Sequence record: OR776998
DNA from: Escherichia phage YX22
Strand: one strand, 5' to 3'
DNA: 64,000 nt
Part shown: piece after piece, positions 10,482-39,831 of the stretch
How positions within the stretch are numbered: the stretch's first letter is position 1
How the letters are laid out: each line of letters opens with the position of its first letter
The notes under the pieces: model-generated
Databases searched by the model: none
Told to the model about the DNA's origin: nothing
What the model saw: the letters and a program-made list of their open reading frames with translations, nothing else
Position numbers and translations under genes: made by a program

Positions 10482-11333
10482 TTAGCCGTTGATGCCGAAG
10501 CGACGATTATAGTCGGCCAACTGACGCTTGATAGATTCTTTCAGCTCTTTGTCTGTTTCATCTTCATCGTCATCTTCATCGCCTTCTTTCTTAGGCTTTT
10601 TGCCTTCGGCTTTAACATCTTTGTTGTCGTCATCGCCGTCTTTTCCGCCGACTTTGTCCTGGAAGTCATCGTCATCGTCATCGCCTTCTTTCTTCACGGA
10701 CTTACCTTCTACCAGGTTGCGGAAGGTGTGTACGCGGGAAGCGAATTCGCTTTCGGTGGTGAACTGCACCGCTTCCAGCAGATTGACAACCGTTGCTTTC
10801 TTGGTATCGACCATACCTTCACAGATACGGGCGATCACAGAGTCACGCAGAGTCGCATTCGCGGCTTCTTTGATTTGACGGTTTTCGCTTTCAGCAGCCG
10901 CAGCGCGTTGTTCTGCTTCGGCCAGGCGGGCAGTCAACGCAGCGATCTGGCCGTTTTCGTCGGTGGCAAAGTTAATACCAGCTTCTTTCAGAACACCAGT
11001 CAGGCCAGTCAGCAGGTTTTCAGCCGCTTCACGTTTGATCTGAGCATCGATTGCAGGAGCGTTCTTGTTAGCCCACTCTTCTACAACAGCATTCAGGAAG
11101 CCATCGACTTTCGTCGCGATTTCCATCAAGTGAGACTCTTTCAGCTGAGCAATCTCAGCCTGATGAGCTTCAACCAGACGCAGGCGCTCAATATTGGCAG
11201 CGTTTTCGGTTTCTTGAATAGCGGTCAGGCGAGCGGCTTCTACTTTAGATTCCAGCAGACCAGACACTTTATCCAAGAAGTCGGTGCTGAGGCCGTTAAC
11301 GCCCTCAAACAGTTTTTGCAATTCAGGTTTCAT
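10482..11333 (-). CDS. prohead scaffold protein
   Basis: Ala/Glu-rich coiled-coil sequence with an acidic DDDDDD / EGDEDDDEDE tail. Occupies the T4 gp22 position. Confidence 0.7.
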   Translation of the reverse strand: MKPELQKLFEGVNGLSTDFLDKVSGLLESKVEAARLTAIQETENAANIERLRLVEAHQAEIAQLKESHLMEIATKVDGFLNAVVEEWANKNAPAIDAQIKREAAENLLTGLTGVLKEAGINFATDENGQIAALTARLAEAEQRAAAAESENRQIKEAANATLRDSVIARICEGMVDTKKATVVNLLEAVQFTTESEFASRVHTFRNLVEGKSVKKEGDDDDDDFQDKVGGKDGDDDNKDVKAEGKKPKKEGDEDDDEDETDKELKESIKRQLADYNRRFGING

Positions 11334-28494: not shown

Positions 28495-28626
28495 ATGGTC
28501 ATGGATTCGAGACCTCTGCCATTCATGGTAGATGGTATTCAATTAGGTATGTTTAATATATCAGGTCAGACTATTACCTTAACTGCTGTATCGATTAGGG
28601 TAATGCAAACAGTAAACTCTATATAA
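28495..28626 (+). pseudogene. truncated paralogue of small ORF 33385..33624
   Basis: 43 codons. The last 35 align codon for codon with the 33385 ORF. Confidence 0.4.
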
Positions 28627-28650
28627 AAAGTATTATTAATAAGTAAAAAC
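28522..28650. repeat. 129-bp intergenic repeat, copy A
   Basis: Near-identical to 33520-33648. Confidence 0.85.
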
Positions 28651-28677
28651 AACCCCATAGAAGTGGGGTTGTTTTTA
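28644..28677. terminator. bidirectional terminator
   Basis: AAAAAC-AACCCCA-tagaag-TGGGGTT-GTTTTT. Confidence 0.7.
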
Positions 28678-28689
28678 AGTGATTATTAC

Positions 28690-30603
28690 TTACATAACAA
28701 CTGCGGCAGATATGTATCCTGAATCTTGATACGATCCAGAAAGGTCAAAAACTTCTAAGTTAAAAGAGTCAGGGGATGTACTTACGGCATTAATTACTAA
28801 TTTCCCTCCGCTAGTGGTATTGCCAACACTGCATAAAACAGCATAAGCAGAGGAGGGCATAGTATTAGATAGGTTGACGGTATATTTACCGGTCCCGGTT
28901 TTAGTTACAGTTGCTCCATCCGCATACACTAACGACCCCGAAATTCCATTAAAATTGATCATTGCCCGTGTACATGCACTCGACCTTTTTGCGACGGTAG
29001 ACCCAATAAATGCGTATTCTTGGGCCTTGTTAATATAAATCTTATTAACAGAAGTGTCAGGTACTTGTAAGACGTTGTCTATAACAACATTACAGGCTGT
29101 TGCTCCAGATACGGTAGAGCATCTATCTATCTCATAATTGTCGATATTAATAGCCCTTACAAAACCTATACCCCCAAATGCTGACCAGTTTTGTTTAACA
29201 AGAACACCGGAAATACCGGACAGGAAAATAAGATCGCCTGTCGTATCTTTGCTAAACGTGTTGTTGGTTATTGAAACAGAAGAAGAACGCGGTGAGTGAC
29301 TATCATCTGCAACATATACCCTGGCTAAAGAAGAAGCAGTATTCTCTTCAAAGTAGTTACCATCTACCAGTAACTGCTGTGCACCCCCGGCGACAACACC
29401 TACGTCATAGCCCGTGTTTGCTTCAAATAGAGAGTCTCTGACTATGAAATTTCGTACACTACTTGCAGTACCTGAGTCTCCGATAAGAACACCGTTAACA
29501 CCATCAAAGAAAGTACAATTATCAACTTTAACTACGTTGATATCTACCTTTGACGTTTTTACACCATTTGCACATTTAGCGAAATAGCATGAAGTTAGTT
29601 CAGCTACTCCGGAAAAATAGTCTGGGCTATCGTAATGTAAATAGACCCCATATCGAGCGTTTCTGACAACGCAATCTTGAAGTTTTAAATACCAAGCCCC
29701 ACCGAAATCAAAGCCATCAGATGATGAATCCTGGATATCCAGAAAAAGTCCAGAAATCTTAGCTCCTATCGCACCACCTTGAACCCGAATGGCGGGTGAC
29801 GCTAACCCGGTAAACTTAATTACTGAACCTGTTGTTTGGTCATTAACATGTCCAAAACTATTACCAACAATACATAGACTATCAGTGGCAGTTATGATTA
29901 AAGTAGAGCTTATAAGATAAATACCATCCGGTATGTATAAACTCTTTTTCGAATCTATTGCTGCCTGAAACGCGGCGGTATCATCGGTCACACCGTCGCC
30001 AACAGCCCCGAAGTCCTTGACTGACACCAGGTCTTTATTTTTATCATATAGTGTTCGCTTAATGGAGTTGGCCAGAGGTGACTTAAATCCGACCAGACCA
30101 GCGCCATCATCAGATGCAAGATTGATTCTCAAGGCTGCATCACCAACACTAACCCATTTGCCTAACCCAGTACCACCAGCACTTTCAGGAGTTGAGCCAG
30201 AAGAAACGGTTTTAGGTAACTCGCCATCCCAGCGATACTTACCTGTTGTATGGGTAAGCAATTCATTTTTAACATTAAGTGTAGCACCAGTGTCAAACGA
30301 CCCAGGCAATGTAACGTATTCTTCACGGGATACGGCTAATTCCCCAAGATCTATGGAACCAGCTGAATGTACAAGTACAGCATTAGTACCAAGACTTACA
30401 GCAGTAGTTCCTGCCGGAAGTACAGGTAATGAGTAAGCTCGTTGAGTAGTCTTATCGTAAATGACCTTGTAACCACCTAAGTCTACACCTACAGCAAAGT
30501 AGACTACTTCATTCTGCTTAACACCAAACTTACGGGCAATGGCTTGCTTATTGGTAAGAATACCAGTGGAGCCTTTACCACCTTGGGAGAACATCTCGTT
30601 CAT
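28690..30603 (-). CDS. tailspike, pectate-lyase-type beta-helix depolymerase
   Basis: Shared N-terminal module, then DFGAVGDGVTDDTAAFQAAIDS, the typical start of a pectate_lyase_3 tailspike. A+T-rich. Confidence 0.75.
   Translation of the reverse strand: MNEMFSQGGKGSTGILTNKQAIARKFGVKQNEVVYFAVGVDLGGYKVIYDKTTQRAYSLPVLPAGTTAVSLGTNAVLVHSAGSIDLGELAVSREEYVTLPGSFDTGATLNVKNELLTHTTGKYRWDGELPKTVSSGSTPESAGGTGLGKWVSVGDAALRINLASDDGAGLVGFKSPLANSIKRTLYDKNKDLVSVKDFGAVGDGVTDDTAAFQAAIDSKKSLYIPDGIYLISSTLIITATDSLCIVGNSFGHVNDQTTGSVIKFTGLASPAIRVQGGAIGAKISGLFLDIQDSSSDGFDFGGAWYLKLQDCVVRNARYGVYLHYDSPDYFSGVAELTSCYFAKCANGVKTSKVDINVVKVDNCTFFDGVNGVLIGDSGTASSVRNFIVRDSLFEANTGYDVGVVAGGAQQLLVDGNYFEENTASSLARVYVADDSHSPRSSSVSITNNTFSKDTTGDLIFLSGISGVLVKQNWSAFGGIGFVRAINIDNYEIDRCSTVSGATACNVVIDNVLQVPDTSVNKIYINKAQEYAFIGSTVAKRSSACTRAMINFNGISGSLVYADGATVTKTGTGKYTVNLSNTMPSSAYAVLCSVGNTTSGGKLVINAVSTSPDSFNLEVFDLSGSYQDSGYISAAVVM
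30124..30603. repeat. ~480-bp shared RBP N-module, copy 1
   Basis: Encodes ..YKVIYDKTTQRAYSLP..VSREEYVTLPGSFDTGATLNVKNELLTH..KYRWDGELPKTV... Also similar at DNA level to the other copies. Confidence 0.8.
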
Positions 30604-30660: not shown

Positions 30661-33324
30661 TTAGCTTAATGGTTTTACTTCCCATCGCTTGTCATAGTAA
30701 TGTGCAAAACCACAGTAGGATACAGACAGATGAACGATTGCATTTACTAGGCTTGCTGTAGGTAATGCAATTCTGACAAATGTTTTACCGTCACGTACCA
30801 GTTTAGTTACTGTTACCCCGGAAAGAGATTTATCACCAGCAATCATATTAGACCAGACTGCACCAGAGGCTACATTTTCCTGTGTGCTACCGGATAGCCC
30901 AAACAGAATACTGCCCCCTGATTCAGTACCAGCCAAACCATTTTTGTTAACTGGAATGATATCTGCACGCCCAGCAACGAAGCAACCATCTGGGATTTTA
31001 GTCTCTTCCCCTACAGCACAGAGAAATATATCCAAAGCCCTGTTCCATGGAACCAGTACAGTAGCTTCCTTGTGGTCAACACTCCGGAAGAACGAACTGC
31101 TATTAGAGTGAATTGCCGACAAAGTAGTGCCTGTATATGAGTTACGACCCTGTACAATATCTTCTCCATATACCCTGCCCCGGTAAAGGTTACCACGGTT
31201 ATATGTAGATATTGTGTAGGAACCATCGCTAACTTTTAAAAATTCAAAATTACTATTTAATGTAACACTACGCCCAATATACTGGTTACTTGGAGAAGTG
31301 GTATTCTCCATCAATTTGATAGCATAGTCAGAGTTAACGTAACCACTGTCAAAGATAATCCTACCAGCCTGGTACTCATTAGTAGGTAACTCAATAAAAT
31401 GAGTTACACCAGTATTCATTTTAGACTGAATCCAACAAGAAACATCTCTGAATACGATTGTTGTTTGTGCAGCAGGGGAAGCTAACTGTGAGAAGTCTAA
31501 TGCCACTGGCCCATTTATCCCTTCAATACCGAAGCCAGAGAATGAGAGGCTACGAATATCTCCATAAAATTTATGAGGTAAAATGCAACCATCTGCTGCA
31601 ATGTTGCTAGTAGCAACATACATGACAGGCAATCCATTACTGACTGGCTCATATGTAGTACGGTTAATGGCAGCTCCCCATAAAAAACCAATGTCACAAT
31701 GGTGTGCCCAAATAGATGACATATCCGTACTAGTGCTTCCATTGATACCAAAACCATAGGTACAGTCATATGCATACAAATTGGTCATAACACTAACAAA
31801 GCAAGCCATAGGCAAAGCGAACTTATAGTGGTAAAAGTCCACATCATGCACATTAAATGTCTTACCGCCACCACCTATGCCATTGCTTAAATCGAATGAA
31901 CTAATAACAAGAGGACTACCTACGTAATCAGAATCAGCATTTCGGAAAGAGAGGCGACCAATAGTAATATTGTGTCCCCATCTGGTAGAGATGAATCCAC
32001 CCTTACCTGATGTATAAATAATACTTTGTCTCTGACCAAGACCCGTAATGGATAGAGATCTGCCAGTCCAACGCTGATTGCTAATATCAATCTGTGTATC
32101 ACCAATATACATTGGTTGGGTAATTTTGATATTCAACCCATTAGCTACAGCATATGAATAGGTTGCTAACAAAGCATCCCCATCATTGTGCACACCAGTC
32201 AGGTCAGCAGCCCCCATACTTGGTGCTTTAGGATACGGACCGCCCTGAATGGTGCTGCCGTCGATATATGGGGCGTCCATCCACGCACCAAACATAGATG
32301 GGGTAACTTCGGTGCTACCACGTAAATCACGTACCCAACGTTTGCCGGATGCAGTAACAATAGTCATACCATTATCATCTGCTGATGTAACAGATGGTTT
32401 ATATACAAAATACCCGCCACCTAAATCACCGGCATTGGTTGCAATCATACCGTCAGTATGGGCTTCTACGTAAATACGTTGTTCAGCATAGGTAGGCTCA
32501 ATTGTTCGCAGTACTGCAATATTGGGGCATGTACCAATCAGCTTACTACCATCAGGCTTGCTCAGGTCTTCTCTGAGACTAGCACCAGAATTTGGGACTT
32601 CCATCAAATCTACGGTAATGTTACCTGGACTGTAGGTTAACTGACCATTAGACACAGAACTAATATAGACATTGGTCGGTAATGAAGGCAGGCCATAAAT
32701 TTTCTGAGCAGCTGCATCGAAGATAACTTTCTTGTTATCGAGTACTTGAGATGTATCCGTATTAAGAATTACCTCAGAATCTTTTACATTAGCTGAACGA
32801 GCGATTTCTTGAATACTTCGGTCAAACAACGGACTGATATTCGGTTGTTTAACAGACATTTCAGCGACTACCCAAACGCCTGCAGTCAGCGCAGTTTGTA
32901 AAGACACTTTCCCTGTCGTGCTGTCATAGGAATATTCAATTTCTGGTGTTTTGTACTCACCACCGATATAAAGAGATTGGACTCCATAAGATGTGTAATC
33001 AGGAGTGAACTCGGTTTCACCTCCTATAGCCTGAAACTTATAGATTCGAATCCCGGTTTTATAATCTTCTGGAGACAGAATCTTATCAAACAGACAGAAC
33101 ACAACGTCACCTTTGGATAATGCACACCCGAGATTCAACGTATTTCCATCGATTTCAAAGTTGTCTAACGGAACTTGCATACCACCGTTGATTGTGACTA
33201 TACCCGTGACAGGGTAGAAAGGGAGGGAGATAAACTTCTCTCCGCCCGTTGCTGTGTAAGTGTATGGAATCTGGTGCGGAGCTGTTACGACCGCTCCAAA
33301 GATGCTCTCGACGTTTCTGGTCAT
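30661..33324 (-). CDS. tailspike/receptor-binding protein with N-terminal docking domains
   Basis: 887 aa from the ATG at 33324 (MTRNVESIF). Ig-like N-terminal repeats, a weak copy of the shared module, and a large C-terminal domain. A+T-rich. Confidence 0.6.
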   Translation of the reverse strand: MTRNVESIFGAVVTAPHQIPYTYTATGGEKFISLPFYPVTGIVTINGGMQVPLDNFEIDGNTLNLGCALSKGDVVFCLFDKILSPEDYKTGIRIYKFQAIGGETEFTPDYTSYGVQSLYIGGEYKTPEIEYSYDSTTGKVSLQTALTAGVWVVAEMSVKQPNISPLFDRSIQEIARSANVKDSEVILNTDTSQVLDNKKVIFDAAAQKIYGLPSLPTNVYISSVSNGQLTYSPGNITVDLMEVPNSGASLREDLSKPDGSKLIGTCPNIAVLRTIEPTYAEQRIYVEAHTDGMIATNAGDLGGGYFVYKPSVTSADDNGMTIVTASGKRWVRDLRGSTEVTPSMFGAWMDAPYIDGSTIQGGPYPKAPSMGAADLTGVHNDGDALLATYSYAVANGLNIKITQPMYIGDTQIDISNQRWTGRSLSITGLGQRQSIIYTSGKGGFISTRWGHNITIGRLSFRNADSDYVGSPLVISSFDLSNGIGGGGKTFNVHDVDFYHYKFALPMACFVSVMTNLYAYDCTYGFGINGSTSTDMSSIWAHHCDIGFLWGAAINRTTYEPVSNGLPVMYVATSNIAADGCILPHKFYGDIRSLSFSGFGIEGINGPVALDFSQLASPAAQTTIVFRDVSCWIQSKMNTGVTHFIELPTNEYQAGRIIFDSGYVNSDYAIKLMENTTSPSNQYIGRSVTLNSNFEFLKVSDGSYTISTYNRGNLYRGRVYGEDIVQGRNSYTGTTLSAIHSNSSSFFRSVDHKEATVLVPWNRALDIFLCAVGEETKIPDGCFVAGRADIIPVNKNGLAGTESGGSILFGLSGSTQENVASGAVWSNMIAGDKSLSGVTVTKLVRDGKTFVRIALPTASLVNAIVHLSVSYCGFAHYYDKRWEVKPLS

Positions 33325-33330
33325 TTGAAG

Positions 33331-33404
33331 ATACCCCATAGAGGATTTGCCAATATGGGGTATTTAGTCTGAACTAATAAATTTATGAACAAAGGTATAA
33401 CAAG
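33331..33404. repeat. ~74-bp promoter/leader repeat, copy A
   Basis: Matches 36708-36780 with a 1-nt indel. It includes the late motif and the first 20 nt of the small plus-strand ORF. Confidence 0.8.
33361..33367 (-). promoter_or_regulatory. late-promoter-like core CTAAATAcccc
   Basis: Forms a 10-bp inverted repeat (33331-40 with 33354-63) that spans the promoter and the RBS. Confidence 0.55.
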
Positions 33405-33624
33405 GAGAACCAATGGAACTACAATAGTAGGTTCAGATGCCAGTACCAAAGTTCAGGGTGTAGATATAGCCAACAGGGATAACGTTTTAGCTACTTACAC
33501 ACTAGGTTCAGCAGACCCTTTCATGGTGGATGGTATACAGTTAGGTATGTTCAACATATCAGGTCAGACTATTACCTTAACTGCTGTATCAGTAAGGGTA
33601 ATGCAAACAGTAAACTCTATATAA
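33385..33624 (+). CDS. small conserved protein antisense to the tailspike operon
   Basis: 79 aa. Against the partial copy at 28522-28626, 7 codons differ and 6 of those are synonymous third-position changes in this frame. Confidence 0.6.
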   Translation: MNKGITRRTNGTTIVGSDASTKVQGVDIANRDNVLATYTLGSADPFMVDGIQLGMFNISGQTITLTAVSVRVMQTVNSI

Positions 33625-33648: not shown

Positions 33649-33676
33649 TAACCCCGCCGAAGCGGGGTTTTGTTTA
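33643..33676. terminator. bidirectional terminator
   Basis: AACCCCGC-cgaa-GCGGGGTT with A- and T-tracts on either side. Confidence 0.7.
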
Positions 33677-36600
33677 TTACTTCTGTTCAAGAGCAGAAAG
33701 TCTGGCTTCGATTCTTTCCAGTTTTCTTCGCTGATAAGCAGCTTCAGCAAAGAAAATTCCGTCAGGCCGCACGCCCCACTCCTCACCCTCTTCGTGAATA
33801 ACCACCTCAGTGAATACAGGCTCTTCCGTGGTGGTGACATTACCCTCCTCGTCAGTGTGTTCAACGATTTCATTGTGCGAAAATACCATATCGGTCATCC
33901 GTGGATACTTGTCATAGCACAGAACGGCATAACGACAATCCGTACTGTTTTCGTCCATCAGACCATGTGCAATGAATACATCACGAATTTGCTGAGCAAT
34001 AACCCCGAAGTGAATACGAGCTTCATTGCCTTTCAGTTGAACAGCATCTAACCACTGGTACATGATGTAGTGAACGTCACCCCAGGCATCCAGGAAAGCA
34101 TCATCAAAAACTACCGGCTCCGTTTTCTTCTCTCCGTTAGAAGTAACAATAGGGTTGCTTCCGAGGTATGCAGTGGTGAAACGGTTGCTGGGCCCACCAA
34201 GAGCAATAGCGTTATCGTTATAAGGCTTAACATCAGCAGTCTGGAACAGGTGCTCAGCTCCGTTGTAAACTATCCTGCGAGAAGCTGTGTTATTCGCACC
34301 GTAAAGCGTAATCTGTGCACCAGTAGAAGAACTGGTTCCTTCTCCACCGCAAAATATGGTGCGCTGTCCTGCTGGGTTATTAGTAGGTACAGATTTCCCA
34401 ATAAACCCATACTCGCCTTCCAGTAGCATTTCAGAGCGAATGTTATTACTGGTGCTGGCCCTAAGGGTCACATGACCTAAACCCAAATCTCCTGTAAATT
34501 CCATTGGCGCAGGGACAGTGCGAACCCCATTCGTATCAAAAAACACGGGAACAGCTCTGTCAGGTACAGCACCATATCTGAAATCCCTGGAAACACGATT
34601 GTCTGGGCCAATCTTCATTTTGTAGCAATACAAATCTGAGGGATGACCATCTGATTTGAATGGGTCTTTCGCTGAGTTATCTCCATATGTCCAGGGGTTC
34701 AGATGGTCTTCCCCACCGAACATGTAATAGATATAACTATCCTTAACAACCACTGAGCCAACACCGACTCCAGAGTTGACAATACCGCCCTGATAAATCT
34801 GGTCAGTGATATTCACCCACTGAGTATTATCCAGGTTCCAGGTGTCTAGGTTCACTCGCGTGTAGAACGTTCGTGGATAAGAAGTAAAGTATCGTTGATC
34901 AGGTACATTGGCTTCCCATTCGTTATCAGCACGCTCTGTGGCGAAAATGATTAGTTCATTACCGACTTTAGCGAACGGCAACGTAGAGTGGTGAACATTA
35001 TTAGGAAATCTGAGTGATTCCCAAGTCATGCCCAAATCATGACTACGATGCAACGAACTCCCCAAACGATCTGAACGAGTACCACGAGTTAAGACATAAA
35101 GAACGCCATCAAAATATTTAACGCAAGGCTCTGCCGCATCAGGTTCATAATCAGCAGGAATACGACGTTTTTGGTATAAACCCGGGTTATTAAACGCATC
35201 CGGGAAATACAACATGCCAACTTCACGAGGAGCAACATCACCTTGGTGATACCCCATCATGAATGAATCATTATTGATGGCGGTAAAACTATGAACTTCA
35301 GTCACCATTGGGATTAACCCAAGGCTGGTTTTACGCCACGGCGACTCATGGAACGATGTACCCATATGCCAACGGCTGGTAGAATTATTTTGGTCAAACG
35401 CCTGTTGATTTGGCGTGGTAACTGTGAAAGTGTTGCGGTCAATAACTGAAGTTACAGTCATATTCCCTGAAACTCCAGTCACCCCAGAGTTTGAGAAGTT
35501 AACAAAATCCCCAGCAAAAAGACCGTGTTCAGGGATAGTAATTACAGCCACAGGCTGGTTGGCGGCTTTAGTGATACCGCCTGTCGGATGGTAGTTACGG
35601 GACATGGGGCGATCCCACAACTCACAGGTTACCAGTGCGTTAGATGCCAATGTACGGGTCTCAATCATCGCAAAGAGACGATTACGCATCACCCCCATAC
35701 TCATGCAGTGGTAGTTAACTGTCGGATAGTCAGGATGTAGGTCGGTTAACCACTCCGGGGTTGTCCAGGTCTGTCCGTCATCCCCTGAACGAACCCAGGA
35801 TACATGCAGCCTGCTAACCCCATGTCTATCACTAGCCATGAACGGACAGTAAATAACATCGTCGTAAACGAACGCTTTATCTTGTGGCCACGCATTGTAA
35901 TAAGGGGTGTCCGTTATTTTGAACAGCTCGCCCTGAACAAATTCTTCAGAGGCATAATAAAGCGGCTGACCAGGAATACGCTCATAAACAAAACGAGTGT
36001 TGACGAATCGACTAATGTCAGGCAAGGATGTGACCTTATATGTCTTCCCATTGCCATTAATTTTCTGACCAACTGGTGCGGCGTTTAATACGCCATTAAG
36101 CGCTGAGGTGTCATCGGTGACCCCATCACCTTTTGCATTCCACCCGCGCGGGTCGAATGTGTCTCTCCATCTTGCGATCTGCAAATCTGGATATTTTGTT
36201 GCGCCATCAGGGTCAGAAAGCTGGCTTCTTAATGAAGCATCACCAACACTAACCCATGCACCAGTTCCAGTGCCACCAGTACTCCCAGGAGTTGAACCAG
36301 CTGGAACTGTTTTAGGGAATTCACCCTCCCAACGATACTTACCCGCTACATGAGTAAGGAGTTCATTTTTAACATTAAGTGTAGCACCAGTATCAAACGA
36401 CCCAGGTAAAGTCACATATTCTTCGCGACTTACGGCTAACTCCCCAAGGTCTACAGAACCAGCCGAATGAGCGAGGATTGCCTGTTCGTTCAGACTAACA
36501 GCAGTCGTTCCTGAAACAATACCTGAAGGAAGAGAATAAGCCCGTTGGGTAGACTCATCATAAATTACTTTAAATCCACTGAGATCAATACCAGCAGTGA

Positions 36601-36703
36601 AATAAACGACTTCGTCTTCTTTGACACCGAAATTTCGAGCGATAGATTGTTTGTTAACTTCTATGGAAGTGGAGCCGCGTGGTTGATTGAATTGAGAAAT
36701 CAT
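33677..36703 (-). CDS. endosialidase tailspike (endo-N-acylneuraminidase) with C-terminal intramolecular chaperone
   Basis: Long stretches match K1F endoNF as I remember it: HGVSRLHVSW..SGDDGQTW, GTRSDRLGSSLHRS, YLGSNPIVTSNGEKKTEPVVFDDAFLDAWGDVHYIMYQWLDAVQLKG, ..RKLERIEARLSALEQK. Confidence 0.9.
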   Translation of the reverse strand: MISQFNQPRGSTSIEVNKQSIARNFGVKEDEVVYFTAGIDLSGFKVIYDESTQRAYSLPSGIVSGTTAVSLNEQAILAHSAGSVDLGELAVSREEYVTLPGSFDTGATLNVKNELLTHVAGKYRWEGEFPKTVPAGSTPGSTGGTGTGAWVSVGDASLRSQLSDPDGATKYPDLQIARWRDTFDPRGWNAKGDGVTDDTSALNGVLNAAPVGQKINGNGKTYKVTSLPDISRFVNTRFVYERIPGQPLYYASEEFVQGELFKITDTPYYNAWPQDKAFVYDDVIYCPFMASDRHGVSRLHVSWVRSGDDGQTWTTPEWLTDLHPDYPTVNYHCMSMGVMRNRLFAMIETRTLASNALVTCELWDRPMSRNYHPTGGITKAANQPVAVITIPEHGLFAGDFVNFSNSGVTGVSGNMTVTSVIDRNTFTVTTPNQQAFDQNNSTSRWHMGTSFHESPWRKTSLGLIPMVTEVHSFTAINNDSFMMGYHQGDVAPREVGMLYFPDAFNNPGLYQKRRIPADYEPDAAEPCVKYFDGVLYVLTRGTRSDRLGSSLHRSHDLGMTWESLRFPNNVHHSTLPFAKVGNELIIFATERADNEWEANVPDQRYFTSYPRTFYTRVNLDTWNLDNTQWVNITDQIYQGGIVNSGVGVGSVVVKDSYIYYMFGGEDHLNPWTYGDNSAKDPFKSDGHPSDLYCYKMKIGPDNRVSRDFRYGAVPDRAVPVFFDTNGVRTVPAPMEFTGDLGLGHVTLRASTSNNIRSEMLLEGEYGFIGKSVPTNNPAGQRTIFCGGEGTSSSTGAQITLYGANNTASRRIVYNGAEHLFQTADVKPYNDNAIALGGPSNRFTTAYLGSNPIVTSNGEKKTEPVVFDDAFLDAWGDVHYIMYQWLDAVQLKGNEARIHFGVIAQQIRDVFIAHGLMDENSTDCRYAVLCYDKYPRMTDMVFSHNEIVEHTDEEGNVTTTEEPVFTEVVIHEEGEEWGVRPDGIFFAEAAYQRRKLERIEARLSALEQK
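36224..36703. repeat. shared RBP N-module, copy 2
   Basis: Same module as 30124-30603. Confidence 0.8.
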
Positions 36704-36707
36704 GATA

Positions 36708-36780
36708 ATACCCCATAAAGGATGACCAATATGGGGTATTTAGGCTGAACTAATAAATTTATGAACAAAGGTATAACAAG
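36708..36780. repeat. promoter/leader repeat, copy B
   Basis: Matches 33331-33404. Only the first 20 nt of the small plus-strand ORF survive here. Confidence 0.8.
36737..36743 (-). promoter_or_regulatory. late-promoter-like core CTAAATAcccc
   Basis: Forms an 11-bp inverted repeat (36707-17 with 36730-40). Confidence 0.55.
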
Positions 36781-36805: not shown

Positions 36806-39787
36806 TTACGGGTAAGCACTCTCGAACTTACAGAACCAAGTCGTTCCTCCATCAGTTGTTGACAACCTAAAAACTTGTGTTCCAGCTGCTGTCAAAGATG
36901 GGGTACTACTTGCTAATATAACATTTGCACCAAATGTTATTGTTTTAGATGTTGTTGAATAGACAGCCAAAAGAACCTCAACATAACCAATTAGTGTATT
37001 TGTTAATACTGCTGGAGTTATTGTTACATCTCCTGTAACTGTAGCTGCGATGTAAGATGCGTCTGAAAAGTCAGGCGCATAACTTGCTGTTGGCGTCTCG
37101 AACTTTGGATTTCTTACCAATACAGGAACTCCAACATTTTTCCTGAAAATTGTACTATTGCAAACCATATCATACTCTATACCAACAAAATTCTTAGCTG
37201 CGAGTATGTTAGTAAATGTCTGGTCCGCAGAGTAAATATGAGTTATCAGCCTTGCCACCCATGCTGGTGAGTTTGAGTTTTCACACTCAATGAATGAGCA
37301 GTTGGTACTACCAACAGCGAATGGCATTAATGATGCCGTATATGAAGATAGCCCTGCGTCATTGAATGCATTCATATTCACAAAAGTCTGGCATTGAGAG
37401 AACGTATTACCGGTGGCTCCACCATCAATAAAAAAGCCAATCCCGCCGTTAATATAACCATCTACAGGATCTAAATTAGCTTTCGTGTAGTCCCATTTTG
37501 ATGGAGAATCTGCAAAACATTGATTGAAGGAATTGTTTATTGAGTTCTGTACAACAAAGCAGCATTTCATCCTTGAGTTCTGGTCAGTGACTGTATCGTC
37601 ATACATGCCCCAGTTGTGCACCTTACCAATTCTGTTATTACCACCACCACGAACCCAGGTACCAAATCGGAAATAACGACCTTCACCCATGCTAACCTGA
37701 TGATCGCTACCTTCAACAATGTGGGCTGTGCTGAGCGGATTAGTTGGTTTTAATACACCAACAGCATAAAACTTCAATAGGTGCACACCCATACCGCCAG
37801 CAATATGGATGCCATGACCATCAACGTTGGCTACGTAAATGCCTTCTAACTTGTTAGCATAGCCATCGGATATCTTAAACCCATTAACAGTTTTTGCACG
37901 GGCATCAATTAATAAGTTGCTGATATGCCCAGCGTATTGATTACCCGTCCCTTTATCGCATTTAACAGCATAGCCAGAGGAGTCTGCAACGAAGTCATCG
38001 GTGAGGTACACCCCACCGAAACCAGCATCAATGCTAACATCTCCGTGAATGTGTAGTGTCGTACTGATAGGATATTTCTTCCCATTCAGCCTGATAACTT
38101 TGCTTACAGTGTTAGGTTGTAGCCAGTCAGGATGGTTAGCAGCACTACTTGGTGCATGTTCTAAACCTGTTAAAGCTGCCGCAGCATCAATCGCATCCTG
38201 TAATGATGGATACATATCCGGGTTGACATTTATAATTTTCTTAAGCGCATTGCCAACAGTACCAGTTTCGTAATCAATTGACTTATCAAAACCTGAAAAA
38301 CCTGCTCCTGTAGGTTTAGCCAATTCTGACTTCAATGAAGCATCACCAACACTAATCCATGCGCCAACACCAACGCCGCCTGTTGTCATAAGAGTTGAGC
38401 CAGGAGCAACGGTTTTAGGAAGTGTACCATCCCAACGATACTTTCCATCAGTATGGGTGAGTAATTCATTTTTAACATTGATGACAGCACCAGAATCAAA
38501 TGTCCCAGACAATGTAACATATTCTTCACGAGATACAGCCAATTCCCCGAGATCTACAGAACCCGCTGAATGCACAAGTACAGCGGAAGAACTAAGACTG
38601 ACAGCAGTAGTACCAGGGACAATATCAGCAGGCAAGGGATAAGCCCTTTGCGTCTCCTTGTCATAAATAACTTTATACCCACTTAACGCAGCACCAACAC
38701 TAAAATAAACGACCTCTGTATCTTTAACATTGGTTACACGAGCAACTTCCCGCAAAGTATAATCAATTTGATTATAGATGTTTGGTGTTCCATTGATAAT
38801 TACAACAACTTCATCCTCTGGTTCCAGTTCTTGCGCAAGAGTGATTTTACTGGTTAATGGATCGAATGTGAATCCCAGATTTTTATACTGGCGACTTCCG
38901 TTTATATCAATGGCCGGAACATCATCAACAACGACGTCCAACGTGATTTCGGTTTCACCGCCAATCGCTGAACCCCCATTATAGACCCAGGTAATCGTAG
39001 AAGAACTAGAACCACCGCCATTACCCAATTGAATAGGAGTATATTCAATCACCTGAAGTTCTGTGTTGGCTGGCAAAGAAGGGCTGAAAGTGATTACATT
39101 CCCATCTAGTGAATATTTGGATTCCGCAAGACGTTTTCCGTCAGCATACACGTCCACGATTGTTGGTGGGGTATTGAGAGCGACAGTACTTGTTTCAGAC
39201 GCCAAAATTTTTGTAAAGATTTCACGACTGTAGACGCGACCTTGGCCAAGACCGACGCCGGATGTAATAATCCAACCTTGTTCAGGTCCAGACCAAGTGA
39301 ACGTTGCTGATACGTTATCAGTTGTTATAGCCATGTCTTCAGTGGAGCCATACAAATTATTTCCAGAAGGAGACACAGTCAATGGGTAAGTGGCAAATTT
39401 CCCATAAGCATCACAAATAGTAACGGAATCCCCAATACGCGTAGGGGAAGGGAGAACCACTGTAGATGCCCCTGTGGTATTATTAATGAGATAGCCTCGC
39501 CCTTCAGTGAGCGTTGCCGTAGAGGCATGCGGAAGGACTTCCCAGCGGATACCACCGCCACCCAGCGGCAACCATCCACCATTTTCATAGAAGCCCTCAA
39601 ATTCGTCGGAGTCGGCATTGTAGCGAACGGAAGACGGGAGTCCTGCGCTGGCATTACCCTCGGGTAAAGTCAGGACAGCATCTGGTCCATGCTCAATCGT
39701 ACCCGTGTTGAGGAGACCAGCCAAAGTAGACTGCTCTTCAGCCGCCAGACCGAGAGGGAAAACAGGCTGTGTTGGTTTATTAGCCAT
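36806..39787 (-). CDS. tailspike/branching receptor-binding protein
   Basis: 993 aa from the ATG at 39787 (MANKPTQP). Fibre-type N-terminus (VRYNADSDEFEGFYENGGW), Ig-like repeats, an internal copy of the shared module, and a C-terminal enzyme-like domain. Confidence 0.7.
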   Translation of the reverse strand: MANKPTQPVFPLGLAAEEQSTLAGLLNTGTIEHGPDAVLTLPEGNASAGLPSSVRYNADSDEFEGFYENGGWLPLGGGGIRWEVLPHASTATLTEGRGYLINNTTGASTVVLPSPTRIGDSVTICDAYGKFATYPLTVSPSGNNLYGSTEDMAITTDNVSATFTWSGPEQGWIITSGVGLGQGRVYSREIFTKILASETSTVALNTPPTIVDVYADGKRLAESKYSLDGNVITFSPSLPANTELQVIEYTPIQLGNGGGSSSSTITWVYNGGSAIGGETEITLDVVVDDVPAIDINGSRQYKNLGFTFDPLTSKITLAQELEPEDEVVVIINGTPNIYNQIDYTLREVARVTNVKDTEVVYFSVGAALSGYKVIYDKETQRAYPLPADIVPGTTAVSLSSSAVLVHSAGSVDLGELAVSREEYVTLSGTFDSGAVINVKNELLTHTDGKYRWDGTLPKTVAPGSTLMTTGGVGVGAWISVGDASLKSELAKPTGAGFSGFDKSIDYETGTVGNALKKIINVNPDMYPSLQDAIDAAAALTGLEHAPSSAANHPDWLQPNTVSKVIRLNGKKYPISTTLHIHGDVSIDAGFGGVYLTDDFVADSSGYAVKCDKGTGNQYAGHISNLLIDARAKTVNGFKISDGYANKLEGIYVANVDGHGIHIAGGMGVHLLKFYAVGVLKPTNPLSTAHIVEGSDHQVSMGEGRYFRFGTWVRGGGNNRIGKVHNWGMYDDTVTDQNSRMKCCFVVQNSINNSFNQCFADSPSKWDYTKANLDPVDGYINGGIGFFIDGGATGNTFSQCQTFVNMNAFNDAGLSSYTASLMPFAVGSTNCSFIECENSNSPAWVARLITHIYSADQTFTNILAAKNFVGIEYDMVCNSTIFRKNVGVPVLVRNPKFETPTASYAPDFSDASYIAATVTGDVTITPAVLTNTLIGYVEVLLAVYSTTSKTITFGANVILASSTPSLTAAGTQVFRLSTTDGGTTWFCKFESAYP
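38327..38755. repeat. shared RBP module, copy 3 (internal)
   Basis: Residues ~355-497 of the ORF: ..YKVIYDKETQRAYPLP..VSREEYVTLSGTFDSGAVINVKNELLTH..KYRWDGTLPKTV.. Confidence 0.8.
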
Positions 39788-39824
39788 TTCAAATACCCCT
39801 AAATGTGTTCGTTTCATCTAGGGG

Positions 39825-39831
39825 TATTTAG
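39825..39831 (-). promoter_or_regulatory. late-promoter-like core CTAAATAcccc
   Basis: Forms an 11-bp perfect inverted repeat (39791-801 with 39819-29). Confidence 0.55.

Follow-up and report, generated by a model that had tools for sequence, protein, structure and literature searches.

The tailspike locus of Escherichia phage YX22 was analyzed in a 64,000-nucleotide (nt) stretch of its genome (sequence record OR776998; this whole stretch is called the window below). Four adjacent minus-strand genes at 28.7-39.8 kb encode tailspike proteins (TSPs), three of which share a full module upstream of their receptor-binding bodies. The order of the locus is baseplate wedge genes, tsp4, tsp3, tsp2, tsp1, and then a gene for a 1628-amino-acid (aa) DUF4815 (VriC-like) protein, and the same arrangement, up to four adjacent tsp genes with vriC-like and baseplate genes flanking them, is given in the family description of the Ackermannviridae. 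For annotation, the names TSP1 to TSP4 can be assigned to the four spikes, together with the domain limits listed in Table 1.

Over the 20-44 kb part of the window, Agtrevirus vB_CECAV_050, a Salmonella phage of the Ackermannviridae, shows 98% DNA identity over 71% of the length, and the Agtrevirus type phage Ag3 shows 92% identity over 53%, the parts without a match in these relatives being the spike bodies. By this comparison, the window is that of an Agtrevirus-like phage of the Ackermannviridae. A phi92-like origin, prompted by the combination of an endosialidase with multiple spikes, was rejected, as the backbone is that of Agtrevirus and only the TSP4 body is phi92-like.

The start codons chosen in the first-pass annotation of this DNA for the 993-aa TSP4 and the 887-aa TSP2 agree with those of the proteins of Kuttervirus CBA120 (MANKPTQP... 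in TSP4), and a G-rich ribosome-binding-like motif lies 5' of both ATG codons. A further ATG upstream (39817) would extend the tsp4 open reading frame (ORF) to a product of 1003 aa.

Table 1. Genes and domains of the tailspike locus (positions in the window).
Feature	Position	Strand	Support or remark
tsp4 gene, 993 aa, putative backbone spike of the complex	36806-39787	minus	aa 1-338 match 7REJ; aa 344-507 match 5W6H
TSP4 anchor domain (AD), aa 1-79, putative baseplate attachment	39551-39787	minus	7REJ alignment; limits from PMC8825819
TSP4 XD1, aa 80-178	39254-39550	minus	92% to 7REJ XD1
TSP4 XD2, aa 185-253, putative site of interaction with TSP2 XD2	39029-39235	minus	94% to 7REJ XD2; function from CBA120 ultracentrifugation
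TSP4 XD3, aa 254-335, strongly acidic, putative docking platform for the TSP1 head	38783-39028	minus	95% to 7REJ XD3
TSP4 internal D1 (TD1), aa ~340-423, first half of the module	38519-38770	minus	84% to CBA120 TSP4 D1; GTTAVSL motif
TSP4 internal D2 (TD2), aa 424-481, second half of the module	38345-38518	minus	PF18668, 72.9 bits; 90% to CBA120 TSP4 D2
TSP4 neck helix, aa 482-495, junction to the receptor-binding body	38303-38344	minus	limits transferred from CBA120 TSP3 residues 155-168
TSP4 receptor-binding body, aa 496-993	36809-38302	minus	92% aa identity to BME3 tail spike WWY66334.1
tsp3 gene, 1008 aa: D1-D2 head, neck, endosialidase, C-terminal chaperone domain	33677-36703	minus	
TSP3 N-terminal peptide and D1, aa 1-96, putative plug for TSP2 XD3	36416-36703	minus	94% to CBA120 TSP3 D1
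TSP3 D2, aa 97-154, not of the TSP3 type	36242-36415	minus	identities to D2 of other spikes
TSP3 neck helix, aa 155-168, junction to the endosialidase	36200-36241	minus	
tsp2 gene, 887 aa: XD2, XD3, D1 only, then body	30661-33324	minus	aa 1-349 match 6W4Q
TSP2 XD2	33061-33324	minus	
TSP2 XD3	32821-33060	minus	
TSP2 D1, no D2	~32575-32811	minus	alignment limited to the first half of the module
tsp1 gene, 637 aa: D1-D2 head, neck, pectate-lyase-like beta-helix body	28690-30603	minus	
TSP1 D1-D2 head, aa 1-154	30142-30603	minus	best match CBA120 TSP1, 4OJ5, 287 bits
TSP1 neck	30100-30141	minus	

Copies and extent of the repeated module

The first-pass annotation had described a module common to three spikes, placed at the N-terminus of the 637-aa spike (TSP1) and of the endosialidase (TSP3) and internally in the 993-aa protein (TSP4), with similarity in both protein and DNA, and this description was borne out. 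A tblastn search with the TSP1 head (aa 1-168) hit exactly three places in the window: the self-match at 30100-30603, the start of TSP3 at 36200-36703 (71.6% identity, E 2e-69), and the interior of TSP4 at 38303-38752 (68.9% identity, E 2e-63). Local protein alignments gave 62% identity over 219 columns for TSP1 and TSP3, 65% for TSP3 8-168 and TSP4 335-495, and 44% for TSP1 22-322 and TSP4 348-662. In DNA, an identity of 64-68% was found over ~520 aligned nt, with a core of 80-89% and longest exact matches of 17-30 nt; a repeat search returned three in-register copies of 283 nt with 78% identity (30129-30411, 36229-36511, and 38332-38614), all of which fall within the DNA intervals reported earlier. 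The residue range ~355-497 originally given for the internal copy marks a real position in the numbering of the 1003-aa ORF; the correct range in the 993-aa protein is ~340-495, which fits the DNA coordinates reported along with it.

The Pfam domain PF18668 (Tail_spike_N; TSP1/Gp66 N-terminal domain) corresponds to the second half of the module only, with scores of 88.0 bits in TSP3 (aa 90-155), 77.4 bits in TSP1 (aa 90-155), and 72.9 bits in TSP4 (aa 427-492 in the 1003-aa numbering) at a gathering threshold of 25 bits. TSP1 residues 1-168 and TSP3 residues 1-163 align from residue 1 to the CBA120 structures 4OJ5 and 6NW9, respectively, with 82-83% identity each for the heads; 6NW9, from CBA120 TSP3, is the best match of the TSP3 head (288 bits). 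In CBA120, the head consists of D1 (residues 13-96), D2 (97-154), and a neck helix (155-168), D1 and D2 having been renamed TD1 and TD2 in later papers, and the published TD1 ranges (1-96 in TSP1 and TSP3, 157-257 in TSP2, 344-421 in TSP4) coincide with the positions of the module in the window. By these matches, the module is recognized as the D1-D2 (TD1-TD2) head with the neck helix of Ackermannviridae tailspikes.

Examination of TSP2 revealed a fourth, diverged half-copy, which comprises D1 only (~aa 172-250); in a comparison with TSP1 residues 1-170, the aligned part of D1 shows 34% identity. TSP2 has no match to PF18668 and thus lacks D2. Its residues 1-349 align with 6W4Q, the CBA120 TSP2 structure, with E 5e-143, and XD2 and XD3 are followed by D1 alone. 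In TSP4, residues 1-338 match residue for residue the crystal structure 7REJ (CBA120 TSP4-N335, AD-XD1-XD2-XD3; E 2e-196, 88% identity), and residues 344-507 match 5W6H, the N-terminal D1-D2 of the TSP4 body structure; the AD is 71% identical to that of CBA120 and XD1, XD2, and XD3 are 92%, 94%, and 95% identical. The N-terminal repeats that the 993-aa and 887-aa proteins had been said to share were confirmed for XD2 and XD3 (35% identity over 49 aa between the two XD3 domains, E 1e-5), but not for the anchor domain and XD1.

At residue 25 of TSP1 (30529-30531, minus strand), the histidine that is the axial Zn ligand of the D1 helix bundle in CBA120 (ARHFGV) is replaced by lysine (ARKFGV). The equivalent position is filled by Val in TSP4 and Ser in TSP2, and Asn24, which binds Mg in TSP3, is conserved.

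Proposed branched assembly and docking role of the module

The contacts between these domains have been mapped in CBA120 by ultracentrifugation. The TSP1 head binds XD3 of TSP4, and deletion of XD3 abolishes the binding; TSP2 binds TSP4 via XD2; and TSP3 binds only if its own head is present and a TSP2:TSP4 complex containing TSP4 XD3 has already formed (PMC8825819). The headless TSP4-N335 construct alone nucleates the complex and forms all binary, ternary, and quaternary assemblies, and TSP4-N490, which includes the head, behaves no differently (PMC8825819). In later papers, the XD3 domains are described as docking stations for the TD1 domains of TSP1 and TSP3 (PMC11414711).

Every defining feature of such a complex that can be tested from sequence alone is present at the locus of YX22: the flanked cluster of tsp genes, AD-XD1-XD2-XD3 ahead of the D1-D2 head in TSP4, XD2-XD3 followed by D1 only in TSP2, and a direct D1-D2-neck start in TSP1 and TSP3. 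At their N-termini, TSP1 and TSP3 have ~13-20 residues that are crystallographically disordered and yet identical to those of CBA120, and this conservation is consistent with a role of the N-terminal peptides at the interface. The charge pattern is also reproduced: the net charge of TSP4 XD3 is -9 and D1 of TSP1 is basic (isoelectric point, pI, 8.0), in agreement with the complementarity described for CBA120, while D1 of TSP2, TSP3, and TSP4 is acidic. The four genes thus very probably encode a CBA120-type branched receptor-binding complex with the module as its head.

The domain architecture, orthology, charge pattern, and breakpoints used here come from the YX22 sequence, and the contacts and the order of assembly are transferred from the CBA120 experiments. 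In the assembly proposed on this basis, TSP4 would be anchored at the baseplate through its AD, and its XD2 trimer would pair with the corresponding domain of TSP2. The basic N-terminal D1 of TSP1 would dock on the acidic XD3 trimer of TSP4, and XD3 of TSP2, held beside that of TSP4, would receive the D1 at the N-terminus of the endosialidase spike TSP3. The N-terminal module would be the plug of a docked spike, and the module inside TSP4 (D1 only in TSP2) would simply connect the XD platform with the neck and the enzyme body. The suggestion of the first-pass annotation that the longer proteins dock the shorter spikes, as in CBA120 and G7C, is therefore supported by orthology (matches to 7REJ, 6W4Q, 4OJ5, 6NW9, and 4QNL), and in a comparison with known TSP docking domains every assembly domain maps to a solved CBA120 structure. 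The suggestion is refined in one respect: we infer that the docking socket is formed by XD2/XD3 upstream of the module, and not by the internal module copy.

A direct role of the internal copy was considered in two forms. In the first, the TSP4 module itself would be the docking site and the short spikes would bind head to head, as the common fold and 65-69% identity of internal and N-terminal copies could suggest homotypic contacts and the CBA120 model permits lateral contacts of neighboring heads (PMC8825819). However, the CBA120 TSP4-N335 construct forms all complexes without a head and N490 behaves alike, and removal of XD3, a domain that is 95% identical in the window, abolishes TSP1 binding, which makes head-to-head docking very unlikely. 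In the second form, the internal D1-D2 of TSP4 and D1 of TSP2 would not be passive, but would have an undetected partner or a regulatory role; for example, they could gate XD3 in cis until TSP1 arrives or provide a latent socket for further spikes. In CBA120, the TSP4 head is dispensable for the known contacts, which leaves room for another function; we give this second form a slim chance, and, if true, the complex would be extensible beyond four spikes.

The module could also be regarded as a generic trimerization or neck element of spikes that attach singly, with no CBA120-type complex at all, since D2 (PF18668) also occurs in spikes with other N-terminal anchors (K1F gp17, IME207, and IME392) and hence is not by itself diagnostic of docking. 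However, an anchor domain is found in TSP4 only, TSP1 and TSP3 start directly with D1 and carry N-terminal peptides identical to those of CBA120, and XD2 and XD3 are conserved at 94-95%, all of which renders single attachment extremely unlikely.

Several observations weigh against the branched CBA120-type assembly or its details. All physical contacts in the model are carried over from CBA120. D1 of TSP3 is acidic, which even in CBA120 leaves its mode of TSP2 binding unexplained. TSP1 has Lys in place of the axial Zn-binding His, and the AD of TSP4 shares no more than 71% identity with its CBA120 counterpart, so the attachment to the baseplate may differ in detail. Finally, the D2 found in TSP3 is of another type, and if D2 contributes to contacts between neighboring heads, assembly of this chimeric spike is not guaranteed.

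Both the original observation and its reading are right, but they are already known for CBA120-like Ackermannviridae: reports on this family from 2014-2024 cover the head and its N-terminal or internal position, the D1-only copy of TSP2, the XD platforms, and head-associated recombination.

Paralogy, recombination and the endosialidase chimera

The heads from the window, vB_CECAV_050, and CBA120 were aligned and compared by domain. D1 groups by spike position across the two genera, with 84-97% identity between orthologs (85% for TSP1 of the window and CBA120, 92-97% for TSP3, and 84-96% for TSP4) and 66-79% between paralogs. Such strict clustering by position in both genera indicates that the paralogs predate the split of Agtrevirus and Kuttervirus. 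D2 likewise groups by position for TSP4 (88-98%) and for the TSP3 pair of vB_CECAV_050 and CBA120 (90%), with TSP3 D2 of the window as the exception: it shows 69-72% identity to TSP3 D2 of CBA120 and vB_CECAV_050 versus 83% to TSP1 D2 of the window. By this comparison, the module copies are old paralogs with 62-72% aa identity, each held to its own position.

The likeness of the copies might instead result from a recent duplication within the genome or from ongoing gene conversion (concerted evolution). The exceptional affinity of TSP3 D2 to TSP1 D2 of its own genome would fit such a scenario, as would a 30-nt exact match between tsp1 and tsp3 and one 30-nt bin (tsp3 nt 301-330) that is 96% identical to tsp1 of the window. 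However, the overall nucleotide identity is only 64-68%, identical residues are encoded by the same codon in only 55-58% of cases, and D1 clusters by spike position in both genera. We consider the recent origin improbable as a general explanation; it was rejected for D1, and any conversion would be confined to the beginning of D2.

The first-pass proposal of module shuffling by recombination was confirmed, with breakpoints at the module edges in both tsp3 and tsp4. In particular, many Kuttervirus matches to tsp4 stop at nt 1486-1497 of the 1003-aa ORF, that is, at the end of D2 and neck, and the similarity of the TSP4 body to the BME3 spike starts at ~aa 491. Each of the three full module copies carries the GTTAVSL motif, which has been proposed as a site of recombination, and exchange of tsp genes and bodies via conserved 5' regions has been both proposed and shown experimentally (PMC8432352, PMC11414711). 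In every spike a conserved head stands just before a variable body, which suggests that the D1/D2 and D2/neck boundaries are joints for homologous recombination. Via these joints, receptor-binding bodies would swap between spike positions and phage families. For engineering, the same natural breakpoints are candidate sites for grafting a new receptor-binding body with the assembly undisturbed.

The clearest mosaic is tsp3, which consists of three parts, an Agtrevirus D1, an orphan D2, and an IME207/K1F-like neck and endosialidase, with switches at ~nt 300 and ~nt 450. Compared with tsp3 of vB_CECAV_050, the identity is ~100% over nt 1-150, 86-100% over nt 151-300, and 63-76% beyond nt 300, the D1/D2 boundary. 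From nt ~451 (end of D2 and neck) on, tsp3 follows the endosialidase gene of an unrelated phage, Shuimuvirus IME207, with 96-100% identity, and further downstream it shows 91% identity to G7C-like UE-S5a and 82% to K1F. The D2 segment between these parts (36244-36414, minus strand) has a best DNA match of only 81% (G7C-like pSb-1) in the phage collection, versus ~100% identity to known phages for the flanking D1 and neck.

TSP3 matches the Pfam families PF12218, PF12217 (E 1e-204), PF12195, PF12219, and PF13884 (Peptidase_S74), all above their cut-offs, and has the endosialidase architecture: an N-terminal extension, a beta-propeller with an inserted beta-barrel, a stalk domain, and a C-terminal intramolecular chaperone. 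D1 joined to an endosialidase was found in no record among the 50,697 in the phage collection, no end-to-end match to TSP3 was found in a collection of 5.8 billion protein clusters, and no record of the exact protein was found in public assemblies. No endosialidase of the Ackermannviridae was reported in the literature searched, the coverage of which is incomplete. The chimera of a D1-D2 head with an endosialidase is nevertheless only mildly new, as its known parts are newly combined with no new mechanism. An endosialidase at the TSP3 position predicts that the phage also targets K1-capsulated (polysialic acid) E. coli, which would be a K1 capsule tropism in an Agtrevirus-like phage.

Related spike systems and intergenic elements

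Among the known systems, Kuttervirus CBA120 (4OJ5, 6W4Q/5W6P, 6NW9/5W6F, 5W6H, and 7REJ) is the closest, with the same gene order, architecture of all four proteins, and charge pattern, and with 82-95% identity in the assembly domains. The differences are in the genus, the window being Agtrevirus-like with an AD of only 71% identity; in all four receptor-binding bodies, TSP3 being an endosialidase in the window and an O-antigen hydrolase in CBA120; and in the head, where TSP3 D2 is of another type and the Zn-binding His of TSP1 is Lys. In Gamaleyavirus G7C, the N-terminal D1-D2 head of gp63.1 (4QNL) matches the module with E 6e-62 to 8e-48, and gp63.1 docks on XD3 of gp66 (PMC8825819). However, G7C is a podovirus with only two spikes, and its long protein has XD2-XD3 without XD1 and a different anchor domain. 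The XD2 and XD3 folds are common to T4 gp10 (5IV5) according to a published structure comparison (PMC8825819), and no sequence-level match of XD2-XD3 to gp10 was found at E values up to 10; the T4 partners have no D1-D2 heads, and gp10 has no enzyme body. The XD and head domains have further matches in the Protein Data Bank entries 9D80-9D84 (Gp48, Gp49, and tail fibre), whose source paper was not found in a literature search by these codes.

The endosialidase spikes of K1F (gp17), IME207, and IME392 share D2, neck, endosialidase, and C-terminal chaperone with TSP3, K1F with 80% aa identity from TSP3 aa 54 on and IME207 with 96-100% nt identity over nt 451-700. Unlike TSP3, they have no D1 and are held by other anchors at the N-terminus (T7 gp17-like and others), and hence attach directly and not by way of an XD3 platform. 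Similarly, the spike of the phi92-like (Justusliebigvirus) phage BME3 (WWY66334.1) has a body with 92% aa identity to TSP4 aa ~491-992, but carries a different, short N-terminal adaptor and no D1-D2. Directly downstream of this spike, a 103-aa ORF (BME3 10553-10861) is a D1 fragment with 80% identity to D1 of TSP4, and it looks like the footprint of an exchange between phage families.

The gap between tsp3 and tsp2 is unusually long (337 nt), and a 79-aa ORF lies there on the opposite strand (33385-33624, plus). This ORF matches phrog_17779, a protein family without an assigned function, only in its C-terminal third (positions 136-207 of 208). A partial copy of the region, 138 nt with 92% identity, is located downstream of tsp1 (28519-28656), and homologous DNA is present in G7C-like UE-S5a, in pSb-1, and in several Ackermannviridae records, e.g., LHE287. 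The region looks like a gene remnant or recombination scar common to the 3' flanks of two tsp genes.

A 55-nt element occurs in two copies, 98% identical, 5' of tsp3 (36726-36780) and 5' of tsp2 (33350-33404). It contains the AT-rich box CATAAATTTATTAG as well as a hairpin, AAATACCCCAT...ATGGGGTAT, whose G-rich 3' arm is only a few nt upstream of the start codon. At 39790-39830, before the ATG of tsp4 (39787), there is a similar hairpin of 11 bp, AAATACCCCTA-N17-TAGGGGTATTT. The element and hairpin may represent a common late promoter or a structure controlling translation; the element also provides 5' homology for whole-gene swaps. Finally, strong bidirectional hairpins resembling intrinsic terminators are located directly 3' of tsp3 (33650-33669) and tsp1 (28644-28677), and weaker GC hairpins are found 3' of tsp4 and tsp2. 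With a hairpin 3' of each of them, the tsp genes each look like a cassette of their own.

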